DNA of 35,350 bases from an uncultured bacterium (GCA_965601905.1 CBFCXB010000002.1:1-35350); one strand, 5' to 3'. Numbered from the stretch's first letter, positions 9,913-31,750 are shown. The notes: a model not told the origin generated them from the sequence alone. Translations and numbers: made by a program.

Positions 9913-10752
9913 ATGAAAAGCGAAATCAACGAGATCCAGAGGCGGTACTTCAAGGATATCAGCAAGTATCCGGTGCTATCAAAAGAGAAGGAGATCGATC
10001 TCGCACGAAGGGTCCGCGCGGGGGACGAAGATGCACGCCGCATGCTCATACTGAGCAACCTCAAACTCGTCATAACCATCGCGAAGTCATATATGTCGTA
10101 CGGTGTTTCCTTTCTCGATCTGATCGAGGAGGGGAATATCGGGTTGATCAAAGCGGTGAGCAGGTTCGATCCCGAAATGGGATTCAGGTTCAGCACCTAC
10201 TCGTCATGGTGGATACGGCAATCGATCGTTCGGGCGATATCGAACCACTCCCGGACAATCCGCATACCGATCCATATCTTTCAACTCATGTCCCGATACC
10301 TCCGTCTCGAGGAAGAGGGGAAAGGTATGAACATCGATGAGAAGGCGGCACGGCTCAAAATTTCACAAAAGAAATATCTCATGGTCGAAAAGCTCGTGCA
10401 GAATATACGGGCCCTCGATGTCGCCAACAGCCTGGATACCTACAAGCAGCTCGTACAGATAGAGGACCCCAAGGAGCAGAACAATCCAGAGCAGATTATT
10501 CTCAAGCAGATAGAGCATGAAAAACTGGCTGCCATCCTGGAACGTCTCTCCGAACGCGAACGGCTCATCATCAGGATCCGGTACGGCTTTGACGACGGTG
10601 AACCGCACACCCTTGCCGAGACGGGCAAGGTGGTCCATGTATCACGGGAGCGTGTGAGACAGCTCGAGATGCGGGCGCTGCGCAAGCTGCGATTTCTCAT
10701 CGAACCGAAGAGTGTCGCAGATGATGGTGACAGGAAGGAATCTGATGCATGA
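9913..10752 (+). CDS. sigma-70-family RNA polymerase sigma factor, group 1/2-like without region 1.1 (RpoS-like architecture)
   Basis: Region 2: NLKLVITIAKSYMSYGVSFLDLIEEGNIGLIKAVSRFDPEMGFRFSTYSSWWIRQSI. Then RTIRIPIHI, and region 4: HTLAETGKVVHVSRERVRQLEMRALRKLR. ATG 9913 is preceded by GAAGGA. Confidence 0.85.
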   Translation: MKSEINEIQRRYFKDISKYPVLSKEKEIDLARRVRAGDEDARRMLILSNLKLVITIAKSYMSYGVSFLDLIEEGNIGLIKAVSRFDPEMGFRFSTYSSWWIRQSIVRAISNHSRTIRIPIHIFQLMSRYLRLEEEGKGMNIDEKAARLKISQKKYLMVEKLVQNIRALDVANSLDTYKQLVQIEDPKEQNNPEQIILKQIEHEKLAAILERLSERERLIIRIRYGFDDGEPHTLAETGKVVHVSRERVRQLEMRALRKLRFLIEPKSVADDGDRKESDA

Positions 10753-11263
10753 AGATCTGAAGGCGTATATACGGGACATACCTGATTTTCCAAAGAAGGG
10801 TATCCTTTTCCGCGATATAACGCCGATTCTGCTCGAGCCGCGGTCATTCAACCGAGTGAGCGATATTCTCTTCGAGCGGTACCGTAATCGGGCCGTCGAT
10901 AAGATCGCCGCGATCGAGTCGAGGGGATTCATCTTCGGTTCCGTTCTCGCTTTCCGGCTCGGCTTGGGGCTCGTACCGTTGCGAAAGCCGGGGAAGCTGC
11001 CCTGGCGTACAATTTCGGAAAGCTATTCGCTCGAATATGGCGACGCCGCGCTCGAAATGCATGTCGACGCGGTGGGCGAAGGGGAGCGGATCGTCATCGT
11101 CGATGACCTTCTGGCAACGGGCGGTACCGCGGCGGCTTCGGCCCGGCTGATCGAGCGTCAGGGCGGCATCGTGGAAGAACTCGTCTTCGTGATAGAGCTC
11201 GCGGAGCTTCGCGGCGTCCGGAAACTCGGCGAGCGTCCCGTCTATGCCCTCATTTCGTACTAA
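10745..11263 (+). CDS. apt: adenine phosphoribosyltransferase
   Basis: LKAYIRDIPDFPKKGILFRDITPIL, ESRGFIFG, and the PRPP loop VIVDDLLATGGTA. The start overlaps the sigma-factor stop by 8 nt. Confidence 0.9.
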   Translation: MHEDLKAYIRDIPDFPKKGILFRDITPILLEPRSFNRVSDILFERYRNRAVDKIAAIESRGFIFGSVLAFRLGLGLVPLRKPGKLPWRTISESYSLEYGDAALEMHVDAVGEGERIVIVDDLLATGGTAAASARLIERQGGIVEELVFVIELAELRGVRKLGERPVYALISY

Positions 11264-11330: not shown

Positions 11331-11407
11331 GCCCCCGTAGCTCAGGTGGATAGAGCATCGGTTTCCTAAACCGGGTGTCGCACGTTCGAGTCGTGCCGGG
11401 GGCGCCA
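11331..11407 (+). tRNA. tRNA-Arg (anticodon CCT), CCA encoded; integration target
   Basis: Acceptor GCCCCCG/CGGGGGC, D arm GCTC-AGGTGGATA-GAGC, anticodon arm TCGGT-TTCCTAA-ACCGG, T arm GCACG-TTCGAGT-CGTGC, G, CCA. Confidence 0.9.
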
Positions 11408-11408
11408 T
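11362..11408 (+). repeat. attL-like copy of the 47-bp direct repeat (3' part of tRNA-Arg)
   Basis: TTTCCTAAACCGGGTGTCGCACGTTCGAGTCGTGCCGGGGGCGCCAT is identical to 15509-15555. Confidence 0.9.
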
Positions 11409-11450
11409 TATTTTCAATGACTTGCGTATTGGACGCGGAAGCAAGTCGCT

Positions 11451-11475
11451 CTTCATATGCCACTAATATGCCACT
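11451..11475 (+). repeat. tandem ATATGCCACT repeats (11-bp period); putative integrase arm-type sites
   Basis: CTTCATATGCCACTA (11451-11465) is identical to 15367-15381. A second ATATGCCACT follows at 11466-11475. The repeats overlap the last codons of the integrase remnant. Confidence 0.5.
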
Positions 11476-11758
11476 TTTTTTGAACGAGGAGGGCATCAAC
11501 CGCTTTACGCTTCGTCTCGGGCGACGGGTGGGCGTATCGCATCGTCATCGCGATGTCAGCATGGCCCAAGAGCTCTTTGACCGTGACTAGGTCAACGCCA
11601 CCGAGTACCAAATTTGTCGCGAACGTGTGCCGTAAATCGTGAAAACGGCAAGGTTTGATGCCGGCGGCAAGAAGAGCTGTTCTAAACGAACGTGTGACGC
11701 TCTGGATGGTATATTCTACCATGAATAAGAAGGTCTGTAAATAGGGGGGATGGCACAT
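11453..11758 (-). pseudogene. tyrosine recombinase / phage-type integrase, C-terminal catalytic fragment only
   Basis: Contains RFHDLRHTFATNLV, LLGHADIAMTMRYAH (the catalytic H-x-x-R, H and Y boxes). Only ~100 aa remain, with no N-terminal SAM-like or core-binding domain and no upstream continuation. Confidence 0.75.
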
Positions 11759-11821
11759 AAGGGCCTAAGTATGCCATCATCATTGATAGGAAATGTCAGA
11801 AGCCTCTTACAGGCAGGAGAA

Positions 11822-14248
11822 CTATCTCAGAATCACCATCTTCCTGGTGATCGTTTCTTTTGCCGCCTGGAGCTTATAGAAATAAACACCTGATGCTACG
11901 TTAGTACCTTTAGCATCTTTGCCATTCCATCCAACATCATGATTCCCTTTGGACTGATTCTCATTAACCAGGCGTGCAATCCTTCGTCCGGATATATCGT
12001 AGATATCTATTCTCACATGGCAATTCTCCGGCAGATAATATCTGATTCTCGTCATGGGATTAAAAGGATTGGGATGGTTCTGCCAAAGGGTGAGCGGCAG
12101 CTGCGGTGTCTCAATCGCATCGGTTTCGAAGAGGATTTGTTTTTCTTGATTATTAATAACCTCGACGCGGTATTTGTATGTACTCCCGCAGTCAAATTTC
12201 TCATCCCTGAAATAATAGGCGTTGTTTCTGTGCTGAGCCTCGCCATCTGAAAGGGAACGGTAGTCTTCGATATTCCCGTCGGTACGAGAAATTATAAACT
12301 CCGCGTTTTCATCGTATTCAATGAGACTCCATGACAGCTCAATGAATGAGTTCTTATATGCTGCCGTATAACTGTCCAGAAGCGTTCCCGTTGCACCCTG
12401 TGGGACTATCAGTAGCGGGTCACTTTCGTTCCCGCTGTGATCCTTCGCTGTAATTTTATAGCAAACTGCCCCTGATGAATTCCAATCGCTGTCTAAATAT
12501 TGAGTTTCAGTTGTTTCAGCAATAAGATTCGCTTCACTCGGTTCAAATGATTGGTCATCGCAACGGTAGATGAAATAAGATTCAGTGTCGAAATCCGGCG
12601 GAGATTGCCAGGAGATTGCCATGCCCTCGTCGCTCGGTTCGGCGATCAATTCCTGAGGTGGATCTGGCGATAGTGAATCATCCGCATATGTAGAATCTGG
12701 ACATGAAGTCCATACAGTATACACGGTATCTCCATTTTGGACTGCATATTCCACAAACCTGACGATATACACCGTCCAGTACGTATCGCCATATGATGGT
12801 ACTATACTTAAGTAGCTATTTAGATAAAGATGCTGAGCAGGACGGGTTTCTACCAGCTTCCAGCCATCATCCGGGTGACAGTCGCAGTGAGCCGGGCCGT
12901 CTGCCACACTACTGTAAGCGCTGGATTCGGAAATTTCTCCAGGAGTTGCACCATCACCTTGAGCTTGCTCAATGGCGCTGCCTCGCCGTGCATATATTTC
13001 AAAATGCTCGTTATCGTTTCCTCCGTCCAGTGCGCTGGCTAAATAACGAATAGCTACGTTGCCATTATGCGTTGAATAATCGGAGACACGTATCAAATCC
13101 ACAGGGATTCCAATTTGTTTAGATCTACTATTGTTATTTTCATTAATTTCTTCAATCTGATTTAAATCATCAACACGAAGGTATAATACGGAGCCTCCCG
13201 GCTCCATTAAGGTGAATGTTGCTGATCCAACGAGTGTATCGCCAGATGCCAGCCCGCTATACTCATGGTAGTATACGGACCTATGCTCACTGGATCCCAC
13301 TCTTCTGGTATACAGCTCTATGCGAAATGCCCCCACCGATTGTGTGCCTGCATTAATCAATGCATATCTTGCATTGACCGGCGAGCACCCACATCGCACA
13401 TACCTGACTGAGTATATCCAGGTAGCTTTTAAATCAGAAAAGCCGGTAATATTCTTTTCATTTATGGTCGAGTTGCCGGCAAGATCGTGTATATTGACTG
13501 TTCGCAACGTATATGGTATCTCGTTCTCTGTGGCGTTCGACAAAATCAGTGAAACTGATGAACCGCCTTCCAACAAAGATGCGCTGAGAATGGCAATTGT
13601 GTCAGTAGGATTATCAACTTTACATATACTGTAACGAGAAATATCCTGTGCATCGTTCTCATTCAATGTTTCGCTGAAGAGCAAACGCAGATGATCATCA
13701 TCGATGATCTGTGCTTCAATAAGATACGGTGGCAGCGTGTCAGATGCGCAATGGTTGATGCAGAGATTGGAGTAGATTTTAAGCTCCTCGATAGGGAGAC
13801 CGACCTCGCATATGCAATGAATGGGGGTCTCATGATATGGATCCGTTTGGTGTTTGATTACTTCTATCGATGTTTCATCTTCGTTCAGGATATATAGGGT
13901 TTGACGAAAGATCCAGAGCCAATCGTGATGGCATCCGTCGAAGGCTAGACTAATTCCGTCTGGCAGGGCACCCAGAGGAAGCCCCTCAATTGCGCTGCTA
14001 AAAGTTATTGTACTTGGAACGATGTTCTCTGGATATTGGAGACCGAACTGGACTGCCTGCATTCCATCAGCGCTCGGCAAACACCATCCCCACATCTCGA
14101 TCTCTTGGAAGCCCGAACCTTGTTCACACCAATTGCTATGAGTCGAATCAGCGAAGAGACCTATGTAGCCGTGTGGTGGACTCTCTCCGAACGCTACTGT
14201 GGGTGACACACATATCATTAAGGTCACGAACGTGATTAATCTCATCAT
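11822..14248 (-). CDS. secreted multidomain surface protein with T9SS type-A / FlgD-Ig-like C-terminal sorting domain
   Basis: Signal peptide MMRLITFVTLMICVSPTVAFG. Start at ATG 14248, preceded by GGGAG. CARDB-like segment ending RVDDLNQIEEINENNNS, and Fn3-like segments. C-terminus: WQNHPNPFNPMTRIRYYLP...IDIYDISGRRIARLV...GVYFYKLQAAKETITRKMVILR. Confidence 0.8.
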   Translation of the reverse strand: MMRLITFVTLMICVSPTVAFGESPPHGYIGLFADSTHSNWCEQGSGFQEIEMWGWCLPSADGMQAVQFGLQYPENIVPSTITFSSAIEGLPLGALPDGISLAFDGCHHDWLWIFRQTLYILNEDETSIEVIKHQTDPYHETPIHCICEVGLPIEELKIYSNLCINHCASDTLPPYLIEAQIIDDDHLRLLFSETLNENDAQDISRYSICKVDNPTDTIAILSASLLEGGSSVSLILSNATENEIPYTLRTVNIHDLAGNSTINEKNITGFSDLKATWIYSVRYVRCGCSPVNARYALINAGTQSVGAFRIELYTRRVGSSEHRSVYYHEYSGLASGDTLVGSATFTLMEPGGSVLYLRVDDLNQIEEINENNNSRSKQIGIPVDLIRVSDYSTHNGNVAIRYLASALDGGNDNEHFEIYARRGSAIEQAQGDGATPGEISESSAYSSVADGPAHCDCHPDDGWKLVETRPAQHLYLNSYLSIVPSYGDTYWTVYIVRFVEYAVQNGDTVYTVWTSCPDSTYADDSLSPDPPQELIAEPSDEGMAISWQSPPDFDTESYFIYRCDDQSFEPSEANLIAETTETQYLDSDWNSSGAVCYKITAKDHSGNESDPLLIVPQGATGTLLDSYTAAYKNSFIELSWSLIEYDENAEFIISRTDGNIEDYRSLSDGEAQHRNNAYYFRDEKFDCGSTYKYRVEVINNQEKQILFETDAIETPQLPLTLWQNHPNPFNPMTRIRYYLPENCHVRIDIYDISGRRIARLVNENQSKGNHDVGWNGKDAKGTNVASGVYFYKLQAAKETITRKMVILR

Positions 14249-14286
14249 AATCACTCCCATCGAGATATTGTCATCTTATTAAGTAT

Positions 14287-14302
14287 TGCTTAAGTTGTGC
14301 CA
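14287..14302 (-). promoter_or_regulatory. candidate sigma-54 (-24/-12) promoter upstream of the islet cargo gene
   Basis: The minus strand reads TGGCAC-AACTT-AAGCA, against the consensus TGGCAC-N5-TTGCW. GG and GC are correctly spaced, ~40 nt upstream of ATG 14248. Confidence 0.4.
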
Positions 14303-15366
14303 ATATATCAAAGAGCTGTCAATATATTATCCCGATGAATTATATCTTACCATATAGCATATAATTAAGAGCTCACAAGAATACATTAATGGAATCATAT
14401 AGAGCTGCTATTCGAATGCATAACTTCGACCACACCGATCCATGCGGGTGCGGGGAGCGGGAGGGATGCATGCGGGAAACGGGCTCTGGGCAGCGATTTC
14501 TATGGATTCCGGGCTTTGTAGCCCCGCTCAGGAGAATTTCTGATGCCAGATCATGACCGCTCGATATCGTCGCTCTCTGAGTCGGTCGAGACCTCAGTCG
14601 GCATAGATGGGTGGAAGGAAGCGTTGAGTTTTTTTTAAGCGCTCGCAAATATTGCTTTGTTTCATTATTTTTAAATCAAATCGATTTAATGGTTCATGGA
14701 GGTAAAATGAAAACGCGATCCATGGAGGTGACAGCCTTTGACCAGGTTTGGATAGTGAGTAATGAGGCGGGTGGAACGTTTAAGTTTTTCAGAAGCATTC
14801 GCAAATTTGATTTGATTCATTTTTTCTGAATCAAAACTACCTTATGGGACATGAGGGTGTCTGCAAAATGCGGCACATGGGGGTTTAGGTGGAGAGCCTG
14901 TGCTGGGGGCATGGTTGCCGGGCTCTGGGTAATTGTGAGCCTTGCGCTGTCCTTCCCGTCATCCGCCCTTATGAAATGATAGCCGCAGTCGCAGTTTCGC
15001 CTCAGAGCCTTGCATCGCATCGGGGAGGGGTTTGCCGAAGACGGTTGGTTTCTTAAGAGAGATATCCGGTCTGGTGTTCTGTCCTATATTGAGAGAATTG
15101 GAAATATCATTACTTTCTTGAGACATATATAAGTCCTCCGGCAATATATTAAGGTCAAATCGTGATGGGGGCTGTTCAGATTGAAGGTATTGCCAAGCCA
15201 CCCGCTTGAAGCTCATAATTGTCAACATCTCGGATCATATCCGCCCAGTCACACGATACATGCTGCCGTCCCCCAGCCGTTCCTCTCCGTCCCACCACTC
15301 GATTTTGACATTTGTCTACCTCGCTGGGATGTTCACGCACGCGCTGTCCAGAGATTTCATCTGCCA

Positions 15367-15381
15367 CTTCATATGCCACTA
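15367..15381 (+). repeat. third copy of the ATATGCCACT-containing 15-mer near the attR end
   Basis: CTTCATATGCCACTA is identical to 11451-11465 and in the same orientation. A near-copy CTGCCACTT lies immediately upstream (15361-15369). Confidence 0.5.
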
Positions 15382-15508
15382 CAGATCGGGTCTGTCGGGT
15401 TCTCGTAAGACAAAAGACACCTCAGCAGAGAGTGTGAAAGACCAGGAGACGGGCGACGATTCGACAACTTCCACCGAATCACTCACTTGCTTTTTCATCT
15501 TCCTTCGC

Positions 15509-15555
15509 TTTCCTAAACCGGGTGTCGCACGTTCGAGTCGTGCCGGGGGCGCCAT
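15509..15555 (+). repeat. attR-like copy of the 47-bp direct repeat (orphan 3' part of tRNA-Arg)
   Basis: Identical to 11362-11408. It lacks the tRNA 5' half. Confidence 0.9.
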
Positions 15556-15558
15556 CAA

Positions 15559-15602
15559 AAAAGGGAATTACTTCTCGGATTTATTCGAAGTAATTCCCTT
15601 TT
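15559..15602 (+). terminator. perfect 16-bp stem hairpin right after attR (probable original tRNA-Arg terminator)
   Basis: AAAAGGGAATTACTTC (15559-15574), 12-nt loop, GAAGTAATTCCCTTTT (15587-15602). The U-tract is contained in the 3' arm. Confidence 0.5.
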
Positions 15603-16332
15603 CTCATAAAGGTAACGAGACACTGCCAAACCACCTTGCGTGACGTGTCTCAACCGCACTTCAGAGGCCTGAGCAGCAAGATCGCTTCGCTTCCTAAGTT
15701 TGGCATGAGAGCAGGCGGATCACGAACGCGTAGTTTTTTAATGCCTCGTTGATTACGATTATAGATTGCGCGTAGAAGATGTCAAGGAAAAAATACAAAA
15801 TATTATCAATTTTTATTTTATTTATTGATAGTAAGATGCGGATACAATCTTAGAATTTAGATTAAGTAAAACGCAGGAGGTGACAAAAACCACACACGGC
15901 TATGGATTGAGATTCAGCCGAAATGAACGCGTCTATAAAAAATATTATTGAGCTATTATACTATGAAAATATCATGATAAATTTTCGGGTCGCGCGTATG
16001 GACGCGCGGGGGGGTAAGGCGGGAGTGGAAATAAACATTCCCGCTGATACACCCATACTCAACGGGAATATTTATGAGACATTCGGTATTGGGTTCCTGA
16101 TCTTGCTACCGAAGCCACCAGAGAAGATCAATTATCCAGAATATCGGTAACACGGTGATCACCCCCAGTACAACTAAGCCTGACAATAGTCGGTTTAAAC
16201 CGCTACCTGCCTTTGAAACATCAAATATGTATTATTTGCATATGCTGTGCCGACAGTGGAAAGAACATGTCATATGAAGGTCTATCTTAAGAATTAACAA
16301 AACCTTGAGGGTAATAGAGAGAGTCGTGCAGA

Positions 16333-18804
16333 TTAAGATGGGTTATTGCGAAGTAGCACAATCGTCATATCATCTTTCAAATTGTTTAGGCCAAATGCAA
16401 TAATAGTGTCAAATAGCTTGGCAATCGCGTTTTCCAATGGAAGTTGTAAGTTATTTCTGAAAAATTCAACCAATCTCTTTTCTCCGAAATGCTCGCCTCG
16501 GTCGTTCTCCTGATCGATCAGGCCGTCCGTATAGATGACTACGAGAGAATTTGCCGGCAGCTTGACGATCCCCTCGCTGTAGTGTGGATGCTCCTCGACG
16601 CCGATCAGCATACCGCCCCTCTGTAAACGTTCGACGCTCCCGGACGGTGTGATGATGAGCGGTGGATAGGAACCGCCGTTCGAGTAACGGATGATGTCGC
16701 TTTGATTGTCGTACAGGGCGTAGAAGAAGGTGGCGAATTTCGTTGTATCGCTCCGTTCGTAGAGGGAAGAGCTGATGCTGGTGAGAACCTCATCGGTGGA
16801 TCGATCACGCACGGCTTCGGCACGGAACATCGCCTGCAGTGTTGTCATGAGCATGGCCGCAGGAATGCCCTTGCCCGACACGTCGGCAACAGCGATGCCG
16901 ATCGTTCCGTCCGACATATCGACGAAGTCGTAGAAATCACCTCCGACTTCCTTGCTCGGTTTCGTGCGGCCGGCGATCTCGGCGTTGGTCAGCAGCGGGG
17001 AGGCGGCGGGCAGCAACCGTTCCTGTATACTCTTGGCAAGCTGAAGCTCCTCCTGGAGCCTCTCCTTCTCGATCGAATCCCGGTATAGCTCGATAGTGCG
17101 GATCGAGGAGGCGCTCCGTTCGCCGATCAGTTCGAACAGTTCGGATTCCTGCTGGGTATACGGGCCGCGTGAAACTTTGCCGCCGACCAGTACGAATCCG
17201 AGAAGCTCGTGCTGATCAACGAGCGGAACGACAACCGCAGCGGCCGAGATCGAGAGAAGCTCGAGCGAGATTCTGTCGAGATTGTGCTTGATCCATATCG
17301 TATCGAAATACTCCATCATCAGGGGTAGCCCCTTGTCCTTCATGAGCTGCATCAAAGCGGTATTCGGCGGGAATGAGGTCAGGGGCGGTCGGTTCTTTTC
17401 CGGACAGCTCATCCGCAGCTTGAAGTAACCGCTTTCGTCCCTGAGAAAGAGGTGCACCGGATCTGCTCCGAAGATGTCATGAATTTCCCTTGTGATGAAA
17501 CGCGATATCTCCTCCGGCGAGAGCAGTAGGTGGATCCGGCGCGAGAACTCGATGAACTCCTCCCTGAATACCGCGCGGCTTCGGTAGAATGTACGGTCAA
17601 CGACGCGCTGCACGACGGCCCGTGCGGGCACGAAGGTGATCCCCAGCATTATGATGGCGATGACGGCGACGAATGCGCGCTCGAGCCCGATGACCGAACC
17701 GAAGCGGTCGAACAGCATATCGAATACGGCGTAATAGATCGCCACCAAGAGGCCCGAGGCAACGAAGAATACGAGCCCCTTCCGTAATACCAGCCCGAGA
17801 TCGAAGGCATCGTGCTTAAGGATCGCGTAGGCGAACGAAACCGAGATGAAGGCGAGAAACACGGCTGAGATATGTTGGTAGGGAATATCCAGTGTCGGCT
17901 GGAACTGCTTGATCAGCATGACGGCGGAGAAGGGAAGGATGCCGAGTGCCAACCCGGTGATGACCAGCCGTAACTTGATCTTCTGCGCGCTCTCGGAGAC
18001 GCGGTACGTCCTGATAAAGACGATCACGCTGGCCAGCATATAGAGGAACCAGTAGATGACGGTCACCGCATTGAGGAACGATGCGGTGCCGGCATGTATT
18101 CCCTTCGTGTACTTGTACAGCGCCAGGACGAATGTGGAGATGAATAACACGGCGGGGGGGAAGTAGAGAATCCTGATGACCATCGATCGTTTTGTCCCGC
18201 GTTTGCTCTCCGTTCCGGGGAATAGGATGAAGAAGTGGAGAAAAACGCTCGGGAGAAAGATAAAGAAAAAGTCATACACCAGCTCCCCGGCGATATGGAG
18301 GAATGGAACCGATGTGATGGGACGTTCAGTGATGATGAACGAGAAGAGGAAGCAGTTGATCATGAAGAGCGTGCCGAAGATGTCGGGGCGCTTGAGCGCC
18401 ACGATCAGACCGACGAGGATAAAGGAGCACGCGACCAGGAAAAAAGATATCTTGCGGTAGATCCGCTCCTGCCTCTGCGGCGCGCTCTGGACGAGAAGCT
18501 CGAATGTGGAATCGCCACGCGCGACCGTGTACCGTTGCGGCCGGAGTTCCGTATTCGAATATACGAGAAAATTGAAGTGGTTGAGGTTTCGCGGCACCCT
18601 GCCGTCCACGGCGAGTATCTTGTCCTGCCTGCGGAGCGGCGTCGCCGTGTTCGGGCTGTCCCGCAGGACGCTCTGGATGACTAGATTGTTGTGTTGTATA
18701 CCCGTGTAGGGCGACTGAGAGAAATCCTCGATGCCGAGAACGCCGAGAATAGCGATCAGCGCAGCCGCCGATACAACCAGGACCCGATACACCCTGATCA
18801 CCAT
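16333..18804 (-). CDS. membrane sensor PP2C-type (SpoIIE/RsbU-family) serine phosphatase with N-terminal PDZ-like domain, multi-TM block and GAF-like domain
   Basis: PP2C blocks: LAKSIQERLLP, EVGGDFYDF, IAVADVSGKGIPAAMLM, FATFFYALYD, VIYTDGLIDQEN. About 8-9 hydrophobic helices in the middle. Start moved to ATG 18804, preceded by GGGGAGGAAAGA. Confidence 0.85.
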   Translation of the reverse strand: MVIRVYRVLVVSAAALIAILGVLGIEDFSQSPYTGIQHNNLVIQSVLRDSPNTATPLRRQDKILAVDGRVPRNLNHFNFLVYSNTELRPQRYTVARGDSTFELLVQSAPQRQERIYRKISFFLVACSFILVGLIVALKRPDIFGTLFMINCFLFSFIITERPITSVPFLHIAGELVYDFFFIFLPSVFLHFFILFPGTESKRGTKRSMVIRILYFPPAVLFISTFVLALYKYTKGIHAGTASFLNAVTVIYWFLYMLASVIVFIRTYRVSESAQKIKLRLVITGLALGILPFSAVMLIKQFQPTLDIPYQHISAVFLAFISVSFAYAILKHDAFDLGLVLRKGLVFFVASGLLVAIYYAVFDMLFDRFGSVIGLERAFVAVIAIIMLGITFVPARAVVQRVVDRTFYRSRAVFREEFIEFSRRIHLLLSPEEISRFITREIHDIFGADPVHLFLRDESGYFKLRMSCPEKNRPPLTSFPPNTALMQLMKDKGLPLMMEYFDTIWIKHNLDRISLELLSISAAAVVVPLVDQHELLGFVLVGGKVSRGPYTQQESELFELIGERSASSIRTIELYRDSIEKERLQEELQLAKSIQERLLPAASPLLTNAEIAGRTKPSKEVGGDFYDFVDMSDGTIGIAVADVSGKGIPAAMLMTTLQAMFRAEAVRDRSTDEVLTSISSSLYERSDTTKFATFFYALYDNQSDIIRYSNGGSYPPLIITPSGSVERLQRGGMLIGVEEHPHYSEGIVKLPANSLVVIYTDGLIDQENDRGEHFGEKRLVEFFRNNLQLPLENAIAKLFDTIIAFGLNNLKDDMTIVLLRNNPS

Positions 18805-20987: not shown

Positions 20988-23495
20988 CTACAGAACGATA
21001 TTTACGAGTCGCCCCGGAACAACGATTACCTTACGAATCTTTGTTGCATCGACGAGTGATCTGATACGTTCATCGGATAATGCAATCTCCCGCAAGCGTT
21101 CCTCATCACTGTCATGCTCAACCTCTGCTCGTGATCTTATTTTCCCGTTCACCTGTATCACCAACGTATAGAGGTCGTCGGCGATATAATCACTGTCCGG
21201 CTCGGGGATCCTCTGTTTCATGATCGTTTCCTCGAATCCCATGCGTGACCACAATTCCTCGCACAGGTGCGGCGCCATGGGCGCGAGCAGCTTGACAACG
21301 GTCACGAACGCATTTCGGAACACCGCCCGGGAATCTTCGCTGCCGGCATGGAATGCCTTATTGTTTTTGATAAACAGGTATATCTCGTTCGTCAATTCCA
21401 TCAACGCGCTGATAGCCGTGTTGAAATGGAAATCCCCGCCGAGGATGTCACGCTTTACCCGGTGAATGGTCTGCTGTGTCTTTCTGTATAACGAAATTTG
21501 TTCTTTATCTGAGGTTATAAGATTTACCGAAATATTGGTATCGGCGACGCTACTGACGATCTCCTCGTGCTTCGAGTAGAGGCGCCAAAGCCTGTTCACG
21601 AAGCGATAAGCGCCTTCTACGGCACGATCGTTCCACTCGGCGTCTTTCTCCGGCGGCCCGATGAAAAGGGTGTATAAACGGACCGTATCTGCGCCGTATC
21701 GATCGATCAGGGGATCGGGATTGACGACATTCCCGCCCCGTTTCGACATCTTCGCGCCGTTTCGCGTGATCATCCCCTGCGTGAAAAGCCGCTCGAACGG
21801 CTCGTCGAATCCGACCAGGCCCTCGCTTTCGAGGAACTTCACGATGAAGCGCGCGTACAGCAGGTGGAGGATCGCGTGCTCGATACCGCCGATATACTGG
21901 TCGACGGGGAGCCATCGGTTGGCCCGGGGACCATCGAATGCCCGATCTGAATCGTGCGGCGACACGTATCGGAGAAAGTACCAGCTCGAATCAACAAAGG
22001 TGTCCATCGTATCGGTATCGCGCTCGGCCGGACCACCGCATGCCGGACAGGTCGTGTCAACAAATTCCGGCACCCTCTCGAGTGGACTCTTCCCGTCACC
22101 CCGCGGCATGAAGTCAACGTCGTCCGGCAGCACGACGGGGAGATCCTCCTCGGGCACCGGTACGGCCCCGCATTTTTCACAGTGTATCATCGGAATCGGC
22201 GCACCCCAGTACCGCTGGCGCGAGATAAGCCAATCCTTCAAACGGTAATGCACGGTCCGCTTTGCATAATCCTTGCCGGCGAGATGGTCGGTTATCCGGT
22301 CCATGGCGACCCGGCTGGGCAACCCGTCGAACCTCCCGGAATTGACCATTATTCCATCTTCAACGTAGGCGGCGGTGAGCTCTGCCGCTTCCGCGCCCTC
22401 GGGTCTTATAACCTCGACAACCGGTATCTCGACAGGCGATTGGTGCACAAACTCGAAGTCTCTCTGATCATGGGCCGGCACACCCATCACCACACCGGTG
22501 CCGTACTCCATCAGCACATAGCTGGCGAGGAAGATCGGTATGCGCTCTTCGGCGGCGGGGTTGATTGCGTAGCAACCGGTAAAGAATCCCTCTTTTGTCG
22601 CCTCGGCCTTTTCCCGGTCGGACACCTGTACATGCCGGGCGTGCTGTATGAATGCCCTCCCCTCCTCCTCCGTCCCCCCCTCTTGCAGCAAGCGCACGGC
22701 GAGCGGGTGGTCGACGGCGATGACGATGAAGGTGGCTCCGAAGATCGTGTCGATCCGCGTCGTGAAACAATCCAGGACGGTATCGCTTCCCTCGAGGGGA
22801 AAACCGACTTCGACGCCCTCACTTCTTCCGATCCAGTTACGCTGCATCACCCGCACCCGTTCGGGCCAGTTTTCGAGTTTATCGATGTCTTCGAGAAGCC
22901 TGTCGGCGTAGCGCCGGATGCGGAAAAACCACTGTTTGAGATTTCTGGTCTCGACCTCGCTGGAGCATCGCTCGCAATACCCTCCCACGACCTGCTCGTT
23001 CGCCAGCACCGTCTTGCACGAGGGACACCAGTTGACGGGCGCCTCCTCTTGGTAGGCGAGACCGGCCCGGTGGAGACGCAGGAAGAGCCATTGCGTCCAG
23101 CGGTAATAGTCGGGGCGGCAGGAGGTGACTTCGCGGGACCAGTCGTAGATGACGCCCCACCGGTAGAACTGACGTTTCATGTTGGCAATATTCTGCTCGG
23201 TCCACGTGGCGGGGTGGATCGCGTGCTGTATGGCCGCATTCTCGGCCGGGAGTCCGAACGCGTCCCATCCCATCGGGGCCAGCACGTTCTTGCCCTCCAT
23301 CATCATGATTCTCGCGAGGGCGTCCCCGATAATGTAGTTCCGGCCGTGACCGACATGGAGATCGCCGGAAGGGTAGGGAAACATCATGAGGCAGTAATAC
23401 TTCTCCTCGGCCCGATCGATATCACACCGGAATATTTCTTCCCAGCGCTCCTGCCACTTCTTTTCCACCTCTTGGAAGGGGAAAACATCACTCAT
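20988..23495 (-). CDS. leuS: leucine--tRNA ligase
   Basis: 835 aa. Class I HIGH ([15 protein letters not shown]) and KMSKS ([10 protein letters not shown]) motifs. N-terminus [10 protein letters not shown], and the CP1 editing region. Confidence 0.97.
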
Positions 23496-29076: not shown

Positions 29077-29940
29077 TTAGCAGGCGCCCTTTCCGGTCAG
29101 GACGACGTAGAACGTTTTCAGAATGATCTGAAGCTCTTGGATGAAAGAGAGGCGTGAGATGTACCTGAGGTCATAGAGGAGTCTCCGGCGCATGTGATCG
29201 ACGGTTTTCGTGTAGCCACTCTCTACCTGCGCGAGACCGGTGATGCCGGGTTTCACGCATAGACGCAGATCGAATTCAGGTAGCTCATGCTTGTATTTGC
29301 TGATGAAGAACGAGCGCTCCGGCCGCGGGCCGATTATACTCATATCCCCGTATATCACATTCAAGAACTGGGGTATCTCGTCTATCCGCGCCCTGCGCAT
29401 CAAGCGTCCTACATGGGTGATGCGTGGATCATTATCGCTCGCCAGGACCGGCCCGTCCTTTTCCGAACCCAGCTTCATCGTTCGGAGCTTGATAATATTG
29501 AACGGCTTTCCGGGAGATATCTTTTTTCTGCGATCGGTGCCCGCTCTCCTGTCCGTACTGTTCCTGATGCTCTTCGATAGCGCGCGGCGATCGTTTCGGC
29601 GCCGGTTGATACCGATTCTCTCCTGCTGGTAGAAAGCGGGACCGGGAGATTCGAGTTTTATGATTATCGCGGCGATGAGTATCACCGGCGCGAGTAGAAT
29701 GAGCGCGATACCAGAGAGTATAATGTCAAATCCGCGTTTCAGTTGCATGATCTGCGTCAATCTATCGGTATGCATACTATCGGCATGCATATACCGGACG
29801 GCTTGGCCGAGCCAGGAGATCTCATCCTGCTGGGGCTGAAAATACGGTTGATATGCCTGCTGCGCTCCTCCGTCGTAGAGCGCCGTGCGGTTGAATATTT
29901 GCCTACTCCTGCCCCTGATGACCATTTCTCCCGAGTTCAA
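29077..29940 (-). CDS. small (monotopic-type) polyprenyl-phosphate phosphoglycosyl transferase ('bacterial sugar transferase' family)
   Basis: KRGFDIILSGIALILLAPV...LESPGPAFYQQERIG...GKPFNIIKLRTM...DPRITHVGRLMRRARIDEIPQFLNVIYGDMSIIGPRPE. The true start may be an internal Met (e.g. MHADS or MQLKR). Confidence 0.85.
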   Translation of the reverse strand: MNSGEMVIRGRSRQIFNRTALYDGGAQQAYQPYFQPQQDEISWLGQAVRYMHADSMHTDRLTQIMQLKRGFDIILSGIALILLAPVILIAAIIIKLESPGPAFYQQERIGINRRRNDRRALSKSIRNSTDRRAGTDRRKKISPGKPFNIIKLRTMKLGSEKDGPVLASDNDPRITHVGRLMRRARIDEIPQFLNVIYGDMSIIGPRPERSFFISKYKHELPEFDLRLCVKPGITGLAQVESGYTKTVDHMRRRLLYDLRYISRLSFIQELQIILKTFYVVLTGKGAC

Positions 29941-30208
29941 TCGAATACAATTACCCTCTATTTAATCTCATTACCGAGCAATAATCATACCTTATCAAGA
30001 ATTATTAGCGACACCTAACAACACGATCCCCGTTTCATTTGTAACCAGCCATATTTATTTAACTTAAATAACCCATGGGAAATAATTCGGGCATGCTGCG
30101 CCGTTACAGCTGGGCCAATCCATAATGTATTGTGGGGAAAACTCCCCAAACAATATTACTAATTTCTTTATTTATTGAGCCTTACGCGTTATTTATAATG
30201 TATATTAC

Positions 30209-31750
30209 CTACTGAACTGTTGTAACTTCATTGCTACGAGAGAGTTTACCGCCTTTATCAAATACGTATACTCTATAATAATAGTTAAAACTGCCCAGGT
30301 CGAGACCCGTATCGTCATAGTATGTAACCTCGCGATCGTTTATTGTTTCCACGAGCGTCGACTGCGTTGTAACTCCCGGAGCGGTCTCGCGATATATACG
30401 GTATTCCTGGAAATCGGTATTTCCGTTCACGCTCCACGTCAAGGTAACGCGATTGTTCCCCACCGACGACAACTCGTCGAGGGTCACCGGTGTAGGATAG
30501 GCATCATGCGTCTGAGCGGCCAGCTCATCGCTACCGGCGGATTCATCGAGATCGTTTACTACATAGATCTTGTAGAAATATGTTTCTCCCTCATCGAGGC
30601 CGCCGTCCGGATAGGCTGTCTGGTCGATATTGTACAGCTTCTGCACGAGGAGAGCCGGATCGTCACTGACTCCCGTCTCCTTATCGCGATAGATCGCGTA
30701 GTATGCGAAATGCTCCTCGGTCGAGGCGATCCACCTGATCGTGATGCTTGCCACGGTCGAGTCCTGAACGCCGATCAGCGTGACCGGATCGGGGGGATCG
30801 GTAAGTGAAACGGTATAATCCGTCTCGTAGATCGGTGCCTCGTTCCCGGCGCGATCGATAAAAAAGCCCGCGAGGGTGAGATCGGTGCCGCGTACCCCAG
30901 TGGGGAAGGTGAAATCGGTCCCATACACGCCATCCGAGGACGTCTCGTCCCCTCCCCTCCCATCGTCGGCAAGGTAGATCGGCGTGTCGTAGCTCTCCAC
31001 CATGATCCACGCCTCACCGGAGGATTCATTGTCGTCGACATGCATTACGAGTTGGACCGTTGCCCCCGGACTGTAGCGATACGGTTGTGGCGAGAGCGAG
31101 ACGCCGGTGATCTCCGCATGGGTATCGAGCCCGATCGCATCGCTCATGACCGGCGATTCCGCACCGTTCTCGTCGCGGAAGCGGGCGTATACGGTTTTGA
31201 CGCCGTCTTCCTCGGTAAGGGTCCATACCCGATTGAAACGGTACGTCTCCCACGCACCGCCTGTAAATGTGGGATCATTCGCGATCATCATCAGGGCGGT
31301 CGTGACCGGAGCGCTCAGTTGAAGGGTAACCGCCCGTGAACCGGTATACTCCTCACCGTCGTTGATGATAATTGAATAGGCGGTGGGAACGGCTTCTATC
31401 TCCTCGGATCGATCGCCCTCGACGCCGTCCGCCCCAGCTGCGGACACCGAGTAGTAGTATGACCTGCCGCTGCGCACATTGCTATCGATATAGAAGGTGT
31501 CAACCGTTTCGGCAAGCCGGGCGGGGCGCTGCTCCTCGCTCGTTCTGCGGTACAGATGGTAGCTGCTCGCTCCTGCCGCCTCACGCCAGGTGAGAAGGAT
31601 CAACCCATCGTCGACCTGCGCGGCGAGATCGTTCGGTGCCGGTATTCCCTCCGTTTCGAGATCGAGCGGAACCTCTTCTATGTCTTCCAGGCAGCCATAC
31701 CCCAGGCCGAGTACCATGAGTGCGAGGGCCAGTAGCATCATTCTCTTCAT
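30209..31750 (-). CDS. surface lipoprotein with Fn3-like repeats
   Basis: Start ATG 31750, 8 nt after GGAGG. Lipobox LGYG|C. Several Fn3-like segments (SYHLYRRTSEE...YYYSVSA; FAYYAIYRDKE...YFYKIYV; FQEYRIYRET...YYYRVYV). Confidence 0.7.
   Translation of the reverse strand: MKRMMLLALALMVLGLGYGCLEDIEEVPLDLETEGIPAPNDLAAQVDDGLILLTWREAAGASSYHLYRRTSEEQRPARLAETVDTFYIDSNVRSGRSYYYSVSAAGADGVEGDRSEEIEAVPTAYSIIINDGEEYTGSRAVTLQLSAPVTTALMMIANDPTFTGGAWETYRFNRVWTLTEEDGVKTVYARFRDENGAESPVMSDAIGLDTHAEITGVSLSPQPYRYSPGATVQLVMHVDDNESSGEAWIMVESYDTPIYLADDGRGGDETSSDGVYGTDFTFPTGVRGTDLTLAGFFIDRAGNEAPIYETDYTVSLTDPPDPVTLIGVQDSTVASITIRWIASTEEHFAYYAIYRDKETGVSDDPALLVQKLYNIDQTAYPDGGLDEGETYFYKIYVVNDLDESAGSDELAAQTHDAYPTPVTLDELSSVGNNRVTLTWSVNGNTDFQEYRIYRETAPGVTTQSTLVETINDREVTYYDDTGLDLGSFNYYYRVYVFDKGGKLSRSNEVTTVQ

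Follow-up and report, generated by a model that had tools for sequence, protein, structure and literature searches.

Why should the 3' half of a tRNA gene stand twice, and in the same orientation, on one stretch of bacterial chromosome? We addressed this question for the tRNA-Arg(CCT) locus at positions 11331-15555 of a 35,350-nt stretch of DNA from an uncultured bacterium (GCA_965601905.1, CBFCXB010000002.1:1-35350). The whole of this stretch is called the window here, and all positions are counted from its first nucleotide. An earlier note on this DNA, made from the sequence alone, had taken the duplication for the signature of site-specific integration into a tRNA gene, with left and right attachment sites (attL and attR), and the uniqueness of the repeat, the base composition and the empty sites in related genomes agree with it. 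The 4,100 nt between the repeats (11409-15508) are very probably the remnant of a mobile element that a tyrosine integrase inserted into tRNA-Arg(CCT) of a member of Candidatus Krumholzibacteriota; we refer to them as the islet.

The left end of the islet adjoins an intact, reconstituted tRNA-Arg(CCT) gene at 11331-11407 on the plus strand, called by ARAGORN, matching Rfam RF00005 at 59.9 bits, and having orthologs in four related genomes (L001, L002, L226 and L227). The 3' part of this tRNA, from position 32 onward, constitutes the attL core, a 47-nt identity block at 11362-11408 (+), and its exact copy, the attR core, is found at 15509-15555 (+). The block starts at the last base of the 5' arm of the anticodon stem, one base before the anticodon loop, and runs through the loop, the 3' half and CCA to end one T past it. 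Both the perfect direct repeat and its extent had been described in the earlier note, and both can be read from the sequence as described. The right copy is a displaced 3' fragment lying outside any tRNA gene, as ARAGORN called no tRNA at 15509-15555, and it is continuous with what is native downstream sequence in the relatives. An intact tDNA and a displaced tDNA fragment on the same strand of one replicon form the signature used by Islander, and the extent of the block, from position 32 to one base past CCA, places it in the anticodon-centred class (class A).

The window contains exactly two copies of the 47-mer, at 11362 and 15509, and no others at up to three mismatches; none were seen in 100 dinucleotide-preserving shuffles, and 0 matches are expected by chance. 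A third, degenerate copy was not found by a permissive ungapped scan of the window, in which the runners-up either had 27 of 47 matching positions (24-26 in shuffles) or lay within other tRNAs. At related loci the pattern occurs once each, in the tRNA for L001, L002 and L010 and as an att site in L081. Hence the 47-mer is not a dispersed repeat, a possibility that had been named as a check on the integration reading, and in the window it is confined to both ends of the islet.

A further prediction was an empty site in relatives, in which nothing separates tRNA-Arg(CCT) from the sequence beginning at 15556. By scanning one genome per species with the protein of the upstream APRT gene, we found two relatives, L001 (∼80% DNA identity to the window) and the complete chromosome L002 (∼67%). 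In both, the alignment with the window is unbroken to 11408 and resumes at 15505, the overlap being the tRNA 3' half, while 11409-15504 is absent. Base by base, the tRNA in these genomes is followed by an A-rich tract and a terminator hairpin (GGGAATTACTTC ... GAAGTAATTCCC), and in the window the same hairpin comes after the second repeat copy. This hairpin (15554-15607; 21-nt arms, 90% complementary), the tRNA gene's native bidirectional terminator, is not part of the islet and identifies which side of attR is chromosomal. In L001 and L002 it is located immediately behind the tRNA, and the L002 hairpin has compensatory changes. Two further empty sites, with the gene order as in the window, are present in L226 and L227, whose contigs were recovered via LeuRS homologues. 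Thus, the predicted junction exists in four related genomes. The comparison also bears on the claim that the islet is the sole clearly accessory DNA in the window; this holds for 7.2-20.6 kb, the part that is comparable with the relatives.

The composition of the islet is foreign. Its G+C content is 46.4%, against 55.4% in the rest of the window (z = -5.9 against non-overlapping 4.1-kb windows), and its strand-symmetrised tetranucleotide distance from the window background is large (z = 18.5). The G+C content at third codon positions is 0.45 in its single intact gene and 0.67-0.73 in five host genes. The compositional deviation proposed as a check is therefore strong, and the G+C contrast of the earlier note, based on hand counts, is right in direction; the background, set there at ∼60% from a flanking core gene, is in fact ∼55%, with 58% in the APRT gene. 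Low G+C extends ∼0.8 kb past the second repeat (40.8% at 15556-16332). We considered 15556-16500 as a second, tandem islet and rejected it, since this tail is conserved in the empty-site relatives and contains no third att copy; as judged by this conservation, the low-G+C DNA past 15555 is native intergenic sequence outside the islet. Another low-G+C patch (43%) lies at 29750-30500 in an exopolysaccharide cluster, between the genes for a sugar transferase and an fn3-domain protein.

The enzyme probably responsible for the insertion has left a fragment next to the tRNA. The tyrosine-recombinase fragment of the earlier note corresponds to a 101-aa open reading frame (ORF) at 11453-11758 on the minus strand, identified by PF00589, by PHROG integrase families and by alignment with relatives. 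The PF00589 match (E = 3e-18, 66.6 bits) covers only profile positions 108-170 of 172, the gene being truncated at nt 11707. True homology, as delimited by tblastn, is restricted to 11489-11707, that is, ∼73 codons equivalent to residues 154-226 of a 273-aa relative (P0155); in alignments with relatives it starts at about residue 18 of the remnant ORF, and the blastn alignments to the related loci L083 and L084 both stop at nt 11707. A frame-shifted tail of the integrase is found at 11359-11481, antisense through the tRNA. The remnant retains the HxxR motif and the catalytic Tyr. However, its N-terminal domains and the region of the first catalytic Arg are missing, so that the islet cannot supply its own recombinase, and no excisionase candidate was found among the islet ORFs with Pfam or PHROG. 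With ∼73 homologous codons, a frame-shifted tail and no excisionase-like ORF, the islet does not have the content of an active element. The fragment noted earlier is thus better described as part of a decayed, non-autonomous remnant, which by its gene content would no longer be capable of self-excision. The region between the integrase remnant and the stop codon of the next gene (11708-11821) appears to hold the breakpoint of a deletion or rearrangement, as integrase homology ends at 11707 at both the DNA and the protein level; it has no match to any fetched locus.

The closest relatives of this integrase adjoin the same tRNA-Arg 3' half, with nucleotide identities of 83% (L083, which has a complete tRNA), 79% (L084) and 71% (L081). 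Decay has affected these as well, at points that differ between them: the break is at residue 144 in L083 and at residue 66 in L084, while L081 has a frameshift. A full-length close integrase was not found, all four close relatives being truncated or frameshifted. The ratio of nonsynonymous to synonymous substitution rates between the window remnant and its relatives is low (0.09 for L083 and 0.13 for L084). This shows that the divergence arose while the proteins were functional, which suggests that related mobile elements inserted independently. The same arrangement is seen in remoter members of the family (30-45% identity), whose integrase genes converge by their 3' ends on tRNA-Met, tRNA-Arg(CCG), tRNA-Glu, tRNA-Gly or tRNA-Lys. 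The family is common in related metagenomes, with 333 matches and 256 loci confirmed by tblastn.

Two observations on these relatives are worth recording. In several relatives (L083 503-952; L081 734-1243; proteins P0002, P0004 and P0155), the integrase ORF has no stop codon before the att core and continues antisense across the tRNA 3' half, ending in a putative tail of the form ...QVVEK.GAP.T.RT.D.RFRKP; as read from these sequences, integration would change the C-terminus of the integrase. An ORF that crosses the att core is reminiscent of the intP-attP overlap of myxophage Mx8 (cited in PMC4383910 as reference 24). Unlike it, the integrase ORF in the window stops 45 nt before the core, with the tail frame-shifted. 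The second observation concerns L081 (GCA_022560955.1, Krumholzibacteriota), where positions 1179-1310 contain the tRNA-Arg 3'-half att sequence without the 5' half of the tRNA. It is located between two convergent integrase genes, one a frameshifted relative of that in the window and the other, unrelated, encoding a 395-aa protein and having its own terminator. This site looks like an attP (the attachment site of an element) or the junction of tandem elements.

The integrase remnants beside tRNA-Arg(CCT) in L083 and L084, with their differing truncation points, imply repeated or long-lasting occupation of the site. One could therefore ask whether the islet is ancestral to this Krumholzibacteriota group and has been precisely excised in the lineages of L001, L002, L226 and L227. 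We consider this very improbable. It would require four independent precise losses as opposed to one gain, and the composition of the islet is still far from that of its host. Moreover, the attR copy, which is not under selection, has 0 substitutions in 47 nt, while the nearest empty-site relative is ∼20% diverged, and the DNA adjoining the remnants in L083 and L084 is unrelated to the islet of the window. The absence of the islet from the four genomes is better explained by its insertion in the lineage of the window.

Candidate arm-type integrase sites are found at both ends of the inserted DNA. Tandem CATATGCCAC / AATATGCCAC motifs at 11454-11474 (+), the candidate P' arm sites, overlap the 3' end of the integrase remnant, and tandem CATCTGCCAC / CATATGCCAC motifs at 15358-15379 (+), the candidate P arm sites, are 130-150 nt from the attR core. 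Tandem Repeats Finder reported these as 11455-11475 with period 11 and 15356-15380 with period 12. In the 35-kb window there are three exact occurrences of the motif they share, CATNTGCCAC, compared to 0.16 expected, and all of these are on the plus strand and within ∼150 nt of an att core. The pair on the attL side is conserved at the same place in L083, L084 and L081 even though the overlapping reading frames differ, which argues for a constraint at the DNA level. These tandem motifs flanking both att cores are likely arm-type binding sites of the integrase.

From these elements the following course of events can be proposed. The attP of the element would have included a duplicate of the tRNA sequence between the anticodon loop and the 3' end. 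From recombination at or close to this loop two products would have resulted: a complete tRNA joined to element DNA (attL, adjoining the integrase gene) and a 3' piece of the tRNA, displaced and linked to the native terminator (attR). In the standard model, the 3' portion of the tRNA in attL would be derived from the element, and the native 3' portion would now be in attR, still on its native terminator. The repeat lengthens by four bases in the 5' direction, to 51 nt, if one mismatch is allowed (G at 11361, C at 15508). As this mismatch, the sole one next to the core, is on the 5' side, with G in the attL tRNA and C in attR, the crossover probably took place at or 3' of position 32. A later deletion or rearrangement would then have taken all of the integrase gene upstream of nt 11707.

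The large secreted-protein gene that had been noted between the repeats is indeed there and is intact (11822-14260, minus strand). It encodes 812 aa, or 808 aa from the start at 14248 chosen by the gene caller, and carries CARDB, FlgD_ig and Por_Secre_tail domains. The protein consists, in order, of a signal peptide (recognized by eye), a cohesin-like N-domain, an Ig-like domain, CARDB, a module (residues ∼450-730) whose sequence has fn3-like features (also by eye), and a C-terminal type IX secretion system (T9SS) sorting domain. The sorting tail exceeds the curated thresholds, with 33.8 bits for PF18962 (cut-off 27) and 41.9 bits for PF13860, FlgD_ig (cut-off 27), which marks the protein as a predicted T9SS substrate. 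Copies in two other sequencing runs (L082 and L225) are 99.9% identical to the window over 11379-14697, the full span of those contigs. Base by base, L082 differs in the cargo gene by one synonymous and one S226G change, and further along by a 1-nt poly-T indel.

Homologues carrying the same sorting tail are abundant. A word-indexed protein search had found no homologue beyond this tail, so that the cargo could have passed for an orphan. We rejected this after an exhaustive HMMER search yielded 3,957 remote relatives, with E ≤ 1e-30 for 78; among the relatives are proteins sharing the architecture of the cargo as well as proteins in which the N-terminal ∼250-aa module is repeated up to 18 times. 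Such orphan calls from indexed searches are not to be trusted for divergent repeat proteins; for the cargo, HMMER recovered thousands of homologues at ∼30% identity. Exact-protein look-ups of the APRT and cargo ORFs returned no record, probably through start-codon choice.

A single-sequence AlphaFold model of the whole cargo was unusable (predicted local distance difference test score, pLDDT, 33) and was replaced by an alignment-based AlphaFold (AF2) model of residues 1-290 with a mean pLDDT of 78. The modeled N-domain resembles cohesin modules, with template modeling scores of 0.55-0.66 (target-normalised), root-mean-square deviations of 3.4-4.3 Å and ∼10% identity. There is no Pfam cohesin match in the cargo, so that the N-domain is not a member of the cohesin family by sequence, and the predicted likeness is in fold only. 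No catalytic domain was detected. The cargo, a secreted, non-catalytic protein of several beta-sandwich domains, most likely serves in binding or as a scaffold, perhaps anchored at the cell surface. With T9SS-sorted surface proteins of the Fibrobacteres-Chlorobi-Bacteroidetes (FCB) superphylum (PMC10202324) it shares the N-terminal signal peptide, the C-terminal sorting domain and the tandem beta-sandwich domains. It differs from them in having no catalytic or known adhesin domain, in an N-domain that is cohesin-like only in its fold, and in its ∼250-aa N-terminal module, which lacks a full Pfam model, Big_5 covering the C-terminal part in some relatives.

The remainder of the islet, ∼1.25 kb on the P-arm side (14261-15508), has no recognizable gene, in line with the ∼1.2 kb reported earlier to be without a convincing ORF: no ORF in it has a Pfam or PHROG match. 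We looked for pseudogene remnants and found none with these collections, tblastx against the fetched loci giving one weak, isolated match, and the phage and plasmid collections contain no similar DNA. The region includes two degenerate tandem units of ∼135 nt (14608-14740 and 14768-14902; ∼70% identical), each with an AT-rich palindrome and each followed by a small ORF behind a Shine-Dalgarno-like sequence. These ORFs are at 14708-14829 (40 aa) and 14851-14979 (42 aa, hydrophobic). As structured RNAs the units are unremarkable, with folding z-scores from -0.6 to -2.2. The Logan contigs of L082 and L225 end at 14697, inside the first unit, and the poly-T length change of L082 is near 14629-14637, which hints at population variation in the 14608-14740 unit. 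We regard 14261-15508 as decayed or regulatory DNA of the element.

What kind of element this was can be narrowed down in part. A prophage was rejected, as the islet has no structural, packaging or lysis genes and no DNA match in 50,697 phage records. A PHROG scan of the islet gave integrase families and one weak match (E = 2e-4) of the beta-sandwich segment of the cargo to a virion structural protein. We also rejected an integrative and conjugative element (ICE) or an integrative and mobilizable element, since no Pfam domain of conjugation or mobilisation (relaxase, type IV secretion system) is present in the islet ORFs and there is no plasmid DNA match.

Several points weigh against the reading of the islet as an integrated element, or limit it. 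An intact relative of the element did not turn up: the best identities were 32% among viral contigs and 45% among metagenome contigs, and phage and plasmid records gave no DNA match. The original element, of whatever size, may have been a phage, an ICE or a small integrative element. The two repeat copies are identical, and therefore the one supplied by the element is not distinguishable from sequence. Both have C65 and the discriminator base G73, whereas L001 and L002 have T65 and A73; this difference could reflect lineage-specific changes of the tRNA, element-derived sequence or homogenisation of the copies. The function of the arm sites, the immobility of the islet and the role of its cargo are deductions, and the T9SS machinery (Sov/SprA, PorV, PorU and others) is not encoded within the 35-kb window. 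Finally, the attR-side junction (14698-15555) is present in this assembly alone, as Logan contigs from other runs independently cover only 11379-14697.

The last point leads to the question of whether the locus might be an artefact, a metagenome assembly made chimeric at the shared 47-mer, or might have arisen without an integrase, by segmental duplication of the tRNA 3' half. The attR side is indeed without independent confirmation, and the short-read contigs of the other runs break in the repeat at 11379 and again at 14697. Still, we hold this to be the least probable of the explanations. In contigs of two other runs, attL, the integrase remnant, the cargo and the 440 nt that follow it are found again at 99.9% identity, and the integrase remnant and both pairs of arm motifs are positioned as in an integrated element. 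In addition, positions 15505-15508 (TCGC) mimic the anticodon stem with one mismatch, as is expected for an attP arm, and a chimera would leave the arm motifs near attR unexplained.

If the islet is an integrated remnant, it might still be mobilisable in trans, similarly to a cis-mobilizable element (CIME): excision and re-integration could be carried out by a full-length member of its integrase family that is encoded at another place in the genome or on a co-resident element. What defines the CIMEs of Streptococcus thermophilus is that a related ICE has been shown to mobilise them in trans. Like them, the islet is short and flanked by att sites, and it carries cargo only, without a functional recombination module of its own. 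The difference is that mobilisation in trans has been demonstrated for CIMEs, while the islet is known from its sequence. The attL and attR cores are identical at 47 of 47 positions and the CATNTGCCAC pairs are kept on both arms, the integrase family is both diverse and common in related metagenomes, and the intact cargo gene is conserved at 99.9% in other samples, all of which would be consistent with continued mobility. However, the perfect 47-nt repeat is equally expected from a recent insertion. The close integrases found are all defective, the islet offers no excisionase candidate, and the Logan contigs contain no attP or empty-site variant of this strain, only the filled state. Thus, continued mobility seems unlikely to us. 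Slightly less likely again is the consequence that such an islet would spread a cohesin-like T9SS surface protein among Krumholzibacteriota via the tRNA-Arg(CCT)-specific integrase of a co-resident element. If mobilisation in trans did occur, this would be the first CIME-like element described in this uncultured phylum.

An integrated remnant that is immobile on its own has clear counterparts among known systems. In the Islander survey (Hudson, Lau & Williams 2015), the anticodon-centred attP is the commonest class, accounting for 2083 of 3919 (PMC4383910). Islander class A islands and the islet have in common that one end carries an intact tDNA and the opposite end a displaced 3' piece of it in direct orientation, that tyrosine-integrase sequence, in the islet a remnant, lies inside by the att site, that the identity block extends from the anticodon loop as far as the 3' end, and that the composition is foreign. 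Unlike Islander islands, the islet is not "putatively active", since its integrase is a C-terminal remnant. It is also very small (4.1 kb), with a single intact gene, and its host phylum is known only from metagenome-assembled genomes. The same isoacceptor is the target of the defective prophage KplE1 (CPS-53), inserted at argW (tRNA-Arg CCU) of E. coli K-12, and of phages such as HK620 (PMC2951348, PMC3509656). KplE1, too, is a small defective remnant with a duplicated core at its borders and arm-type integrase sites in attL, which in the islet are candidate sites. By contrast, its core is 16 nt long and located at the extreme 3' end of the tRNA, whereas the block of the islet comprises 47 nt and is anticodon-centred, and KplE1 has kept a functional integrase (IntS) and the excisionase TorI, so that excision is still possible (PMC2951348). 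Compared by layout and not by integrase sequence, the two also differ in that intS, whose promoter overlaps attL, is directed away from the tRNA, while the integrase of the islet converges on it.

The window is a housekeeping region. Upstream of the islet there are genes encoding Der, PlsY, GpsA, an LpxL-like acyltransferase, SurE, PCMT, an M23 peptidase, a sigma-70 factor and APRT, and downstream there are genes for a PDZ-GAF-SpoIIE phosphatase, a tetratricopeptide repeat protein, LeuRS, HolA and an NtrC-type two-component pair, followed by an exopolysaccharide cluster. Named relatives of the LeuRS (64-70% identity) belong to Candidatus Krumholzibacteriota or Krumholzibacteria, the exception being one Latescibacteria entry at 63%, and the closest named relative of the integrase is from Krumholzibacteriota as well. 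On the basis of the named LeuRS matches, the host appears to be a Candidatus Krumholzibacteriota bacterium. The record of L001 (DATKWS010000037.1) is labeled "Patescibacteria group bacterium", but its gene content and its similarity to the window point to Krumholzibacteriota, and the label is probably wrong. In the same record the LeuRS gene (window 20988-23495, minus strand) is nearly gone, with ∼280 nt of similarity left at the syntenic positions 10688-10991. This gap was rejected as a second accessory region, as the core gene is present in L002, L226 and L227; it is probably a rearrangement in, or a misassembly of, the contig of this metagenome-assembled genome.

Directly beside attR and outside the islet, we noticed a strong candidate for an unannotated small RNA (sRNA) of ∼196 nt on the minus strand, from ∼15751 to 15556. 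It is preceded by a perfect sigma-70-type promoter (TTGACA-16-TATAAT, 15785..15758) and folds into an imperfect hairpin of ∼140 nt (minimum free energy z = -5.7). The candidate is conserved in L001, L002, L226 and L227, and its core is 91% identical to that of L002, compared with ∼67% for the neighbouring genes. In the alignment of the five genomes, 93% of cells are paired and six pairs have compensatory changes, a number that none of 500 shuffles reached, while slid controls had 1-3 such pairs. No Rfam family and no conserved ORF match it. The sRNA candidate and tRNA-Arg use one bidirectional intrinsic terminator in all these genomes except L227, in which the gene is inverted and has a terminator of its own. 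There (L227 17111-17511, against window 15630-16167), as also in L228, an intergenic block comprising the sRNA candidate and the counterpart of window 16030-16167 has the opposite orientation with respect to the tRNA and the SpoIIE gene. A second conserved element of the native intergenic DNA, at 16029-16167, can be aligned in L001, L002, L226, L227, L229 and L230. It overlaps a 75-aa ORF at 15923-16150 (+), which has no Pfam match, in the C-terminal part of that ORF, and it may be either a small protein gene or a further RNA. The sRNA candidate is arguably a more interesting lead here than the islet.

The islet itself is a very clean but ordinary tRNA islet of a well-known kind. Current understanding is unchanged by it, because its mechanism and layout match those of thousands of catalogued islands. 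What it does provide is a case of tRNA-gene integration that is precise to the base, from a phylum represented by metagenomes only. The set of attB (the empty site), attL and attR, together with the candidate arm motif CATNTGCCAC and the integrase family specific for tRNA-Arg(CCT), could seed searches for islands in Krumholzibacteriota or the development of genetic tools for them. For the biology of these bacteria, the islet shows the horizontal delivery of a putatively T9SS-sorted surface protein.

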